Notes under the pieces: generated by a model | Seen by the model: the letters and a program-made list of their open reading frames with translations, nothing else | Database searches by the model: none | Told to the model about the DNA's origin: nothing | Source of the DNA: Escherichia coli | GTDB taxonomy: Bacteria > Pseudomonadota > Gammaproteobacteria > Enterobacterales > Enterobacteriaceae | Assembly (NCBI RefSeq): GCF_044324785.1 | Contig: NZ_CP172127.1 | Strand: one strand, 5' to 3' | DNA length: 64,000 bases | Shown here: positions 52,721 to 61,129 of the stretch, one piece after another | How positions within the stretch are numbered: position 1 is the stretch's first letter | Layout: the number at the start of each line of letters is the position of its first letter | Made by a program: the position numbers and the translations under genes

Positions 52721-52736
52721 TTTAACATTAATGCCA

Positions 52737-52762
52737 AAAACCGGGGAAACCCGGTTTTTTTT
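52737..52762 (+). terminator. rho-independent terminator of the dam-rpe-gph-trpS transcript
   Basis: Stem AAAACCGGG/CCCGGTTTT with a GAAA loop followed by a T-run; 17 nt after the trpS stop. Confidence 0.8.
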
Positions 52763-59204: not shown

Positions 59205-60290
59205 ATGAAGACGTATCCTTTGCAAAGCCTGACGCTTATTGAGGCGCAGCAAAAGCAGTTTGCGCTGGTGGACACGATTTGCCGCCATTTTCCCGGCAGC
59301 GAGTTTCTTACCCGCGGGGATTTGGGCTTAACGCCGGGGCTGAATCAACCGCGCATTACCCAGCGAGTGGAACAGGTGCTGGCTGATGCATTTCACGCAC
59401 AGGCTGCGGCGCTGGTACAGGGCGCGGGTACTGGCGCGATCCGTGCGGCGTTGGCGGCTTTGCTCATACCGGGGCAGCGTCTTCTGGTGCATGACGCGCC
59501 TGTTTACCCGACGACTCAGGTCATTATTGAGCAGATGGGGCTGACGCTTATTACTGCTAATTTCAATGACCTGTCGGCACTTAAGCAGGTCGTCGAAGAG
59601 CAACAACCGGATGCGGCTCTGGTGCAGCATACGCGCCAGCAGCCGCAGGACGGGTACATTCTGGCAGATGTGCTGGCAACGTTGCGCTCGGCTGGCGTTC
59701 CTGCATTAACCGATGACAACTATGCGGTGATGAAGGTAGCGCGAATTGGCTGCGAATGCGGGGCAAATGTCTCGACTTTTTCCTGCTTCAAGCTGTTTGG
59801 GCCGGAGGGTGTTGGCGCGGTGGTAGGCGATGCCGATGTTATTAGTCGGATTCGCGCCACGCTCTACTCCGGCGGCAGCCAGATTCAGGGCGCTCAGGCG
59901 TTGGAAGTCTTGCGTGGGCTGGTGTTTGCGCCAGTGATGCACGCGGTGCAGGCGGGGGTATCTGAACGGTTGCTGGCCTTGCTCAACGGTGGTGCAGTTC
60001 CGGAAGTGAAAAGCGCCGTCATTGCCAATGCACAGTCGAAGGTGTTGATTGTCGAGTTTCATCAGCCGATTGCCGCCAGAGTGCTGGAAGAGGCGCAAAA
60101 GCGCGGTGCCTTGCCTTACCCGGTTGGTGCAGAGTCGAAATATGAAGTTCCGCCACTTTTTTATCGACTTTCCGGAACGTTTCGCCAGGCGAATCCGCAA
60201 CTCGAACATTACGCGATTCGTATTAACCCAAATCGCAGCGGTGAAGAGACGGTGCTGCGGATTTTGCGTGAGAGTATTGCGAGTATTTAA
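59205..60290 (+). CDS. yhfS: putative PLP-dependent aminotransferase-fold protein YhfS
   Basis: 361-aa ORF MKTYPLQSLTLIEAQQKQFALVDTI...; matches my memory of YhfS. Confidence 0.88.
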   Translation: MKTYPLQSLTLIEAQQKQFALVDTICRHFPGSEFLTRGDLGLTPGLNQPRITQRVEQVLADAFHAQAAALVQGAGTGAIRAALAALLIPGQRLLVHDAPVYPTTQVIIEQMGLTLITANFNDLSALKQVVEEQQPDAALVQHTRQQPQDGYILADVLATLRSAGVPALTDDNYAVMKVARIGCECGANVSTFSCFKLFGPEGVGAVVGDADVISRIRATLYSGGSQIQGAQALEVLRGLVFAPVMHAVQAGVSERLLALLNGGAVPEVKSAVIANAQSKVLIVEFHQPIAARVLEEAQKRGALPYPVGAESKYEVPPLFYRLSGTFRQANPQLEHYAIRINPNRSGEETVLRILRESIASI

Positions 60291-60349
60291 TGCTGGATAG
60301 CCCCGTTCGGCAATCAAGCTAAATTCAGCGCCGGACGGTCCCCGCAACG

Positions 60350-60395
60350 CGCCAGCATCGCCGGATGCGATGCTGGCGCATCTTATCCGGCCTAC
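60350..60395. repeat. REP element (palindromic units; 12-bp stem GCGCCAGCATCG/CGATGCTGGCGC plus ...CTTATCCGGCCTAC)
   Basis: Perfect 12-bp inverted repeat around a CCGGATG loop and a canonical REP tail between convergent yhfS and frlR. Confidence 0.6.
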
Positions 60396-60397
60396 GG

Positions 60398-61129
60398 TTA
60401 ATGTCTTTTATTATCAATCGTTAAGGTGATGCGGTTGGCGCGGCAGAAGAGTTCGGAGACGTGCACCGGTTTGTTATTCTGATCAAAGGCGATTTTGCTG
60501 ATGCGAAACAGCGGTTCGCCCAGTTCGCATTTCAGCCATTTTGCCTGCGGGCGGGTGGCGGCAAAAATATCGATAGTCTTTTTATCGCTGACCACTCGCG
60601 TGTCAAAACGCTCCTGAAATAACTGATAGGTGGAGCTTCCTTCGACGTAAATCTCATCAAAGTCAGGATAACGCGACAGCGGGATCCAGGAACTATCAAT
60701 AAACAGCGGCTCTTTATCGAGATACATCACCCGGCAAAGATGGAACACTTCGCTGTTACCGGGGATGTTCAGCTTTTCGCAAAACGGCGCGGCGCTGACC
60801 CGTTCCTGTTCGATCACTTTCTCTTTCGTCGCCTTGCCTTGTGAGACGCCAAAATCGGTAAAACCACTGACAGTAAGCAGGGCGTTTTCAACTTTCTGGC
60901 TTTGTACAAAGGTGCCTTTGCCCTGCCAGCGGATCAGTACGCCGTCTGCCACTAAGTCGCTGATGGCTTTGCGAATGGTAATGCGGCTGACGTTATATTG
61001 CGTACAAAGCTCGTTTTCGGTAGGGATCTGTTGCCCGGCCTGGTAAACCCCCTGCGCGATATCATCCAGCAACCGCTGGCGGACGGTAGCGTAGAGGAGT
61101 TGATGAGAGTAGCGGTCCGTAGCTGACAT
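60398..61129 (-). CDS. frlR: GntR-family repressor of the fructoselysine operon
   Basis: Start set at MSATDRYSHQLLYATVRQRLLDDIAQG (243 aa; GntR HTH plus UTRA domain); the ORF track extends 22 codons upstream. Confidence 0.9.
   Translation of the reverse strand: MSATDRYSHQLLYATVRQRLLDDIAQGVYQAGQQIPTENELCTQYNVSRITIRKAISDLVADGVLIRWQGKGTFVQSQKVENALLTVSGFTDFGVSQGKATKEKVIEQERVSAAPFCEKLNIPGNSEVFHLCRVMYLDKEPLFIDSSWIPLSRYPDFDEIYVEGSSTYQLFQERFDTRVVSDKKTIDIFAATRPQAKWLKCELGEPLFRISKIAFDQNNKPVHVSELFCRANRITLTIDNKRH

Follow-up and report, generated by a model that had tools for sequence, protein, structure and literature searches.

The 107-bp spacer that separates the convergent genes yhfS and frlR contains a palindromic element, and this raises two questions: what kind of repeat it is, and what it does for the two transcripts that meet there. 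REPs were described about four decades ago, and those dealt with here are already catalogued in K-12, where the sites carry REP numbers; they are nothing new as such. The practical value of the present analysis lies in how an intact REP is distinguished from a decayed unit or from the scar of a BIME. The whole stretch of DNA that was analysed (the window, 64,000 nucleotides) is E. coli chromosome from glpD to frlA, in the orientation opposite to that of MG1655 3.50-3.564 Mb. All 55 K-12 genes tested mapped to the window with 92-100% identity, the gene names used in an earlier note on this DNA are correct, and strain N3 was the nearest complete genome. All REP-family elements of the window were intergenic. 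The REP numbers and coordinates for K-12 were taken from the supplement of bioRxiv 10.64898/2026.03.23.713779; the RefSeq feature tables of MG1655 that were consulted carry no repeat_region entries, and the RepRanger supplements contained no entry on these genes.

A REP is defined by a GTAG tetranucleotide, an AA/GC bulge and an imperfect palindrome, and the z2 type is 37 nt long (PMC8266576). A covariance model, R1, was built from 22 REPs, aligned before building, that came from 250 kb of MG1655 far from and unrelated to this region. The training REPs could each be assigned to one of the three types in the literature, namely y (35 nt), z1 (~30 nt) and z2 (37 nt), and all showed GTAG and, separated by the AA/GC bulge, an outer stem of 7 bp and an inner stem-loop, in agreement with the published description. 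R1 was then scanned over all 64 kb with filters off. The earlier note had listed four hairpins as REP-type elements and had proposed such a profile scan as a check. All four hairpins were found where it had placed them, and the profile divided them. The scan was decisive for yhfS/frlR (60359-60395, minus strand; 45 bits, E 7e-12, full length 1-35). The nudE/mrcA hairpin passed (39843-39876, plus strand; 18.7 bits, E 0.0016), the rtcA/malT hairpin was borderline (8871-8899; 15.6 bits and E 0.015 on the plus strand, E 0.26 on the minus strand), and the malQ/gntT hairpin failed (16721-16742, plus strand; 12.6 bits, E 0.14). When Rfam was searched at gathering thresholds over the whole window, no family was matched, REPs included, which is no evidence either way.

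The yhfS/frlR element is a single canonical z2-type REP (palindromic unit) and the orthologue of the annotated K-12 REP249, so that the claim of a true REP stands at this site. Read on the minus strand from 60395 to 60359, its 37 nt consist, in order, of GTAG, GCCGGAT, AA, GATGC, GCCA, GCATC, GC, ATCCGGC and G; the tetranucleotide (CTAC on the plus strand, 60392-60395) is thus followed by an outer stem of 7 bp, which the AA/GC bulge separates from an inner stem of 5 bp closed by a 4-nt loop. The canonical tail that had been described for it, CTTATCCGGCCTAC, was found at 60382-60395. In isolation the REP left 4 nt unpaired and folded into a 7-bp and a 5-bp helix with a 2x2 bulge between them and a loop of 4 nt, with energies of -12.9 kcal/mol (DNA) and -22.2 kcal/mol (RNA), and a repeat finder returned the REP's own stem as two 14-nt arms (60360-60373 and 60378-60391) that are 86% complementary around the 4-nt loop. 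The frlR stop codon occupies 60398-60400, so the REP begins 2 nt past it. The exact REP variant is multi-copy: a 29-mer comprising its interior and tail was found at 21 sites in other genomes, the hosts being E. albertii (seven sites), E. coli, E. whittamii, other Escherichia, Citrobacter koseri and one Pseudocitrobacter.

The earlier note had taken a 12-bp perfect stem around CCGGATG to be the stem of this REP. The stem is real, and in fact is 13 bp long, with an extra C-G pair and CGGAT as the loop: the repeat finder placed a perfect palindrome at 60349-60379, in which two 13-nt arms (60349-60361 and 60367-60379) are 100% complementary around the 5-nt loop. It is not, however, the stem of the REP; it is a separate, locus-specific palindrome that overlaps the REP and competes with the REP fold. 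The right arm is made of the REP head and interior, and the left arm is a locus-specific inverted copy of 11-13 nt that lies just past the GTAG-distal end of the REP. With energies of -18.9 kcal/mol (DNA) and -26.6/-27.2 kcal/mol (RNA), the palindrome exceeded the REP fold in stability, and it won over the REP fold in every context fold. Of the 21 copies of the REP variant, one had the left arm (GCGCCAGCATC) upstream, and this was the frlR locus of E. coli E69; because the left arm is thus seen at the frlR locus only, the perfect stem is not a REP property. The inverted copy may stem from snap-back (template-switch) copying at the REP hairpin. As far as the modelled folds go, the rival palindrome may also hinder the fold that TnpA-REP requires.

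Comparison with other strains indicated which parts of the spacer are held constant. The 51 bp made up of the left arm, the REP and the CTAC tail are identical in the window and at K-12 REP249, which also lies 2 nt past the frlR stop, and the same 51 bp are identical in Ecol_316. In the sampled genomes with a match to the frlR end of the spacer, the palindrome and REP were 96-100% identical. Unlike the window, the K-12 spacer has an adjoining G-rich repeat of ~52 bp (CCCCTCGCCCC..GGGGAGAGGGTTAGGGTGAGGGG), which we take to be 'Box C', a name that was not found in a repeat review. This Box C-like repeat lies beside the REP in MG1655 and E. coli E69, is multi-copy (three copies in 318 kb of MG1655), and has been deleted in the window except for its first nine bases (ACGGTCCCC, 60335-60343), which were recognized by alignment with MG1655 and Ecol_316; other copies all start ..cggtcccctcgcccc. 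The Ecol_316 junction falls at a 2-bp TC repeat, and the short spacer is therefore most simply explained as a deletion. Spacers of the window type are rare, being present in at most 91 of 5426 genomes, a figure that is an upper bound because counts at >=80% coverage cannot alone separate Box C-bearing from Box C-free alleles. Another copy of the Box C-like repeat is a K-12 bidirectional terminator, ID 376 (bioRxiv 10.64898/2026.03.23.713779, supplement). The gene yhfS (59205-60290) is 91.9% identical to its MG1655 counterpart, as against 95-99% for its neighbours, a clearly lower value that points to a divergent allele or to a recombination boundary adjoining the REP.

Three further candidate features of the spacer were rejected. 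An outer helix that pairs GCCGGA (60331-60336) with TCCGGC was discarded as part of the element, being not conserved in MG1655. A second, degenerate inverted REP at 60327-60361 was likewise given up, as R1 was silent there, MG1655 does not share the GCCGGA just named, and ACGGTCCCC is part of the Box C-like repeat. The palindrome as a protein operator was unsupported, since it is located at two 3' ends rather than at a promoter.

A search for hairpins followed by a T-run found none in the spacer (60291-60397). The composite hairpin is therefore the sole structured 3' feature of both operons, and because it has no U-tract, classical intrinsic termination is not expected at yhfS/frlR. In K-12, transcripts of both directions end inside the palindrome, and the locus is listed, from an earlier study, as bidirectional terminator ID 370 (3504796-3504824, labelled REP249 and Convergent, with the transcripts yhfT:yhfS:frlR:yhfU:php and the sequence GCGCCAGCAUCGCAUCCGGCGAUGCUGGCGC; bioRxiv 10.64898/2026.03.23.713779, supplement). 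The sequence of this entry is exactly the 13-bp palindrome, the K-12 call having been made at a locus with the adjoining Box C-like repeat that is deleted in the window. We conclude, with a probability of roughly 0.85, that the z2 REP249 orthologue inside a 13-bp palindrome is most likely a two-way 3'-end structure for the yhf and frlABCDR mRNAs. As we picture it, the G+C-rich, U-tract-free hairpin would stop or pause converging transcription in both directions, and would block 3'-to-5' exonucleases on the mRNA of the yhf operon and on the frlABCDR mRNA. In the yhfS transcript, the palindrome would be complete before the 3' arm of the REP is synthesized and would thus form first; in the frlR transcript, the REP fold could form first and later be replaced by the palindrome.

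The position of the REP relative to the frlR stop codon may matter in its own right. A rule that sets a distance of 16 nt between REP and stop codon reportedly originates with Liang et al. 2015. Under this rule, as described in PMC12306157, terminating ribosomes are stalled by REPs that lie fewer than 16 nt away from a stop codon, and translation is lowered. Because its GTAG is 2 nt from the stop, inside the 16-nt rule, the REP may lower the translation of FrlR and thereby cut FrlR synthesis. The effect of REPs on mRNA half-life is not uniform and depends on context (bioRxiv 10.64898/2026.03.23.713779), and local function at the yhfS/frlR REP is for that reason not guaranteed. Three mechanisms could be told apart by experiment at the frlR locus: bidirectional termination, the competing palindrome, and an effect on translation that depends on the REP.

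The palindrome is 5-6 kcal/mol above the REP fold in stability and dominates every context fold, the published terminator entry gives the sequence of the palindrome itself, and the left arm, conserved among strains, is lacking in the 20 remaining copies of the REP variant. It is thus a distinct possibility, though not the reading we favour, that the working unit is the locus-specific palindrome acting as a bidirectional terminator, with the REP as raw material whose own fold and whose transposase and gyrase properties are irrelevant. However, the GTAG, the bulge and the 3' arm of the REP are perfectly conserved too, although they lie outside the palindrome, and the frlR transcript makes the REP first, so that the REP can fold first. 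Moreover, a working palindrome and a working REP are not mutually exclusive. A further thought is that the duplication represents domestication, by which the element gained a fold unusable by the REP transposase together with a strong, U-tract-free two-way terminator. We consider this improbable; if it were true and recurrent at other REPs, it would describe a general path from mobile repeat to fixed regulatory hairpin.

The two-way 3'-end structure that we favour at yhfS/frlR can be set against the other REP-family sites of the window. Presence and absence across strains, a comparison that the earlier note had also put forward, was assessed against MG1655 and 5426 genomes, and REP content proved to be clearly polymorphic, a point that is also made in bioRxiv 10.64898/2026.03.23.713779. 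In this region, 11 significant units at seven loci were scored in MG1655, compared with a single canonical unit, a single good one and remnants in the window. GTAG/CTAC was present at 60392-60395 and at 18372-18375, and was altered or gone at 39843 (GTTA), 39804-39807 (TTAT), 8871 (GTAA), 16721 (none) and 24850-24875 (deleted). In the K-12 numbering, REP252 follows yhgF, REP253 follows nfuA, REP254 lies at malQ/gntT and REP256 at glpD/yzgL (bioRxiv 10.64898/2026.03.23.713779, supplement). REP250 and REP255 were not seen in the supplement's numbering, and the only R1 matches in the respective MG1655 intervals were a BIME at trpS/yhfZ and the malT/rtcA hairpin; judged by the numbering, the trpS/yhfZ BIME is likely REP250.

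Two of the elements in the window that the earlier note had passed over lie between genes of the same direction. One, the counterpart of REP253, is a z2-like REP 21 nt past the nfuA stop (18372-18408, plus strand; 35.7 bits, E 6e-9; -12.2 kcal/mol as DNA). The other, the counterpart of REP252, is a truncated y-type REP downstream of yhgF (24850-24875, minus strand; local R1 match at 24854-24875, 27.2 bits, E 3e-6), from which, by alignment with MG1655, a 14-nt deletion took the 3' arm and CTAC. About 30 nt beyond the yhgF REP there is an intrinsic terminator on the minus strand (24803-24823; GCCGGAGA-ATAT-CTCCGGC, then TTTTTATT), which gives a REP-then-terminator layout. In MG1655, a BIME-1 of ~130 bp (y unit, linker, z1 unit) stands between the trpS stop and its terminator; it is cleanly absent from the window (52721), where the trpS terminator (52736-52759) comes almost directly after the stop. 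The BIME-1 that MG1655 has beside glpD, REP256, is also lacking, and the window carries different DNA there.

At nudE/mrcA, the listed REP-type hairpin does match a K-12 element, REP251 (3525479-3525576; bioRxiv 10.64898/2026.03.23.713779, supplement), but it is one of the two units of a BIME-1 (RIB/RIP), of which the other unit and the linker had been missed. A degenerate z1-type unit (39778-39807, minus strand; 25 bits, E 1.6e-5), with ATAA for GTAG and collinear with z1 of the canonical BIME-1, is joined by a 35-nt linker (39808-39842) to a degenerate y-type unit (39843-39876, plus strand) with GTTA for GTAG. The linker contains the L-motif core GCAATATATTGA at 39817-39828, which is of IHF-site type; this 12-mer, exact or with 1 mismatch, was found between inverted REPs at six other loci that were inspected in MG1655 and E. 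albertii, with spacing alike. Among the sites that had been listed, nudE/mrcA was the only one with an IHF-type linker motif, and it has the BIME-1 arrangement of inverted z1 and y units whose GTAG ends face an IHF-motif linker of ~35 nt. BIME-1 linkers are reported to bind IHF (PMC3184786), and the motif makes the nudE/mrcA linker a candidate IHF site. In MG1655 the orthologous z1 unit scored 29.3 bits (25 in the window) and the y unit 30.6 bits, a score that is lowered to 18.7 in the window by an extra 1-nt deletion of the inner stem that MG1655 does not have. Beside this BIME-1 stands a canonical bidirectional intrinsic terminator (39905-39928), consisting of an A-run, GGCGC-TGAA-GCGCC and a T-run.

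A BIME-2 consists of y and z2 REPs around a short linker, and it is a reported gyrase target. MG1655 has a complete BIME-2 at malQ/gntT, in which 16 nt of linker separate a z2 unit from a y unit. In the window, alignment with MG1655 revealed a 23-bp scar (16720-16742) in which the outer REP heads TGCCGGATGCGAT and GCATCCGGCA directly adjoin, the 66 bp from between them, with both GTAG/CTAC ends, both bulges and the linker, being gone. The hairpin that had been called a REP here thus corresponds to K-12 REP254, but what fails the profile is the deletion scar of a two-unit BIME-2. The full form was found in 2329 of 5426 E. coli genomes (43%) and the 66-bp-shorter form in most other genomes, O157:H7 included; a third allele, 45 bp shorter, has the y unit only and a different flanking haplotype. 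Because these are two different nested losses on two backgrounds, they point to deletion from a full BIME and not to repeated insertion. The malQ/gntT hairpin is therefore REP-derived and is no REP unit. No hairpin with a T-run was found in 16709-16752.

With presence and absence varying among strains at nearly every site, three alleles at malQ/gntT, the trpS/yhfZ BIME-1 missing, the yhgF REP truncated, the nudE/mrcA GTAGs mutated, and the 11 significant units of MG1655 set against one canonical unit, one good unit and remnants in the window, the elements might be regarded as selfish or neutral debris of a repeat spread by the REP transposase and tolerated harmlessly at the 3' ends of genes. 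We find this somewhat doubtful. In the remnants, loops and flanks vary but stems persist, as at rtcA/malT, where the window and MG1655 differ at 0 of 14 stem positions and at 4 of 10 loop positions, and K-12 data put the ends of transcripts, or regions of Rho dependence, at REP249, REP251 and REP254. The present strain has lost several REP/BIME units that are retained in K-12, which is in line with the published idea that strain differences in REP content tune expression at the 3' ends of genes.

The rtcA/malT hairpin, also called a REP in the earlier note, is a degenerate REP-like hairpin (8871-8899) with an 8-bp stem (AGCCGGAT/ATCCGGCT), a 10-nt loop and GTAA/TTAC flanks. Its borderline profile score, its lack of GTAG, bulge and inner stem, and a moderately U-rich run after the hairpin on the malT-sense strand would fit an ordinary terminator hairpin that resembles a REP by chance and never was one, an explanation that might perhaps extend to others of these sites. 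We consider it the less likely reading, though a serious one. The two arms match the REP outer arms (GCCGGAT/ATCCGGC) exactly, GTAA and TTAC in the flanks are only 1 mismatch away from GTAG and CTAC, respectively, and the MG1655 loop contains CGCGCCAG, which is a z2-like interior. Moreover, the K-12 numbering leaves REP255 to a site between 3.548 and 3.5636 Mb, where this hairpin is the sole REP-like match, and for malQ/gntT the alleles exclude such an origin. A hairpin with a T-run was not found in 8862-8905. A decayed REP is thus the probable identity of the rtcA/malT hairpin, to judge from its sequence, and from the numbering only it is probably K-12 REP255.

The notion that the palindromes are chance products of G+C-rich intergenic DNA, which nothing favours beyond the shortness of the weaker hairpins, can be dismissed, since it is refuted by 300 second-order Markov simulations (5 complementary GCCKGAT...ATCMGGC arm pairs observed against a mean of 0.06 and a maximum of 1), by 30 block shuffles of the window (0 with a 13-bp perfect palindrome), by the covariance E-values and by fold z-scores of -3.1 to -5.9. 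The fifth of these arm pairs, unlisted in the earlier note, is at 39779-39803.

The broader claim, that every convergent junction of the window has a structured 3' boundary, did not hold, as glpR and rtcR overlap by 19 bp and bioH/rpnA is without a hairpin, its 28-bp spacer folding with only -5.8/-6.6 kcal/mol. Hairpins were found at 7 of the 9 convergent junctions, four of them REP-derived and three terminator-type only. REP-derived DNA is thus present at 4 of 9 convergent junctions, compared with ~30% of convergent pairs genome-wide in K-12 (bioRxiv 10.64898/2026.03.23.713779). A hairpin with a T-run was found at 39905-39928, 30096-30127, 30871-30894 and 1146-1170; T-run terminators thus lie at the junction beside glpD (1146-1170) and at envZ/pck (30096-30127), and at yhgE/hslO a T-run was present on one strand only. 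The yhgE/hslO spacer (34670-34693) has a 10-bp hairpin (TCCGGCAGAG/CTCTGCCGGA) with the U-run on the hslO-sense strand; this hairpin contains CCGGA and is unrelated to REPs by profile.

Some neighbouring differences from MG1655 were recorded along with these junctions. The envZ/pck spacer is 819 bp long, compared with 75 bp in MG1655, and holds a toxin-antitoxin pair on the minus strand (30125-30797), made up of a RelE-family toxin (105 aa) and a helix-turn-helix antitoxin (98 aa), which carry the annotations RelE/ParE toxin and NadS family protein in other genomes. The pair is flanked by the terminator hairpins at 30096-30127 and 30871-30894, and the segment occurs in 1324 of 5426 E. coli genomes. 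Two ORFs lie beside glpD (window 1-1177), one of 139 aa (97-516) and one of 201 aa, apparently a membrane protein (519-1124); they are annotated as hypothetical proteins, and a Pfam search gave no match for either. These ORFs are present in 2942 of 5426 genomes, and MG1655 has yzgL and the BIME-1 REP256 in their place; the yhfS/frlR query returned the equal count of 2942, which may reflect the same lineage set. Finally, glpR (4091-4849) is 759 nt long, compared with 758 nt for the MG1655 copy, which is annotated as a pseudogene; glpR is probably intact in this strain.

Comparison with known systems places each of these elements. Set against the commonest z2 form (CCTG; GACGC/GCGTC), the yhfS/frlR REP differs in its outer stem, which is y-like (CCGG), and in its inner stem (GATGC/GCATC). 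Like a REPIN, it has an adjoining inverted REP duplicate that lengthens the hairpin; unlike a REPIN, in which two full inverted REPs recur as a unit at many loci, it duplicates no more than 11-13 nt and lacks a second GTAG, and its layout is confined to the frlR locus. With a Rho-independent bidirectional terminator it shares a strong G+C-rich hairpin between convergent genes, at which K-12 transcripts end from both sides; it differs in having no U-tract on either strand, a true example of that class being the hairpin at 39905-39928. The nudE/mrcA element has the order, orientation, spacing and linker core (GCAATATATTGA) of BIME-1 and of K-12 REP251, but both of its tetranucleotides are mutated (GTTA, TTAT) and its inner stems have decayed, unlike the canonical BIME-1, and its y unit has the 1-nt deletion in addition to what is seen in REP251. 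The malQ/gntT hairpin, in turn, equals the outermost 13 + 10 nt of the orthologous BIME-2, K-12 REP254; in contrast to a complete BIME-2, it keeps only the two heads.
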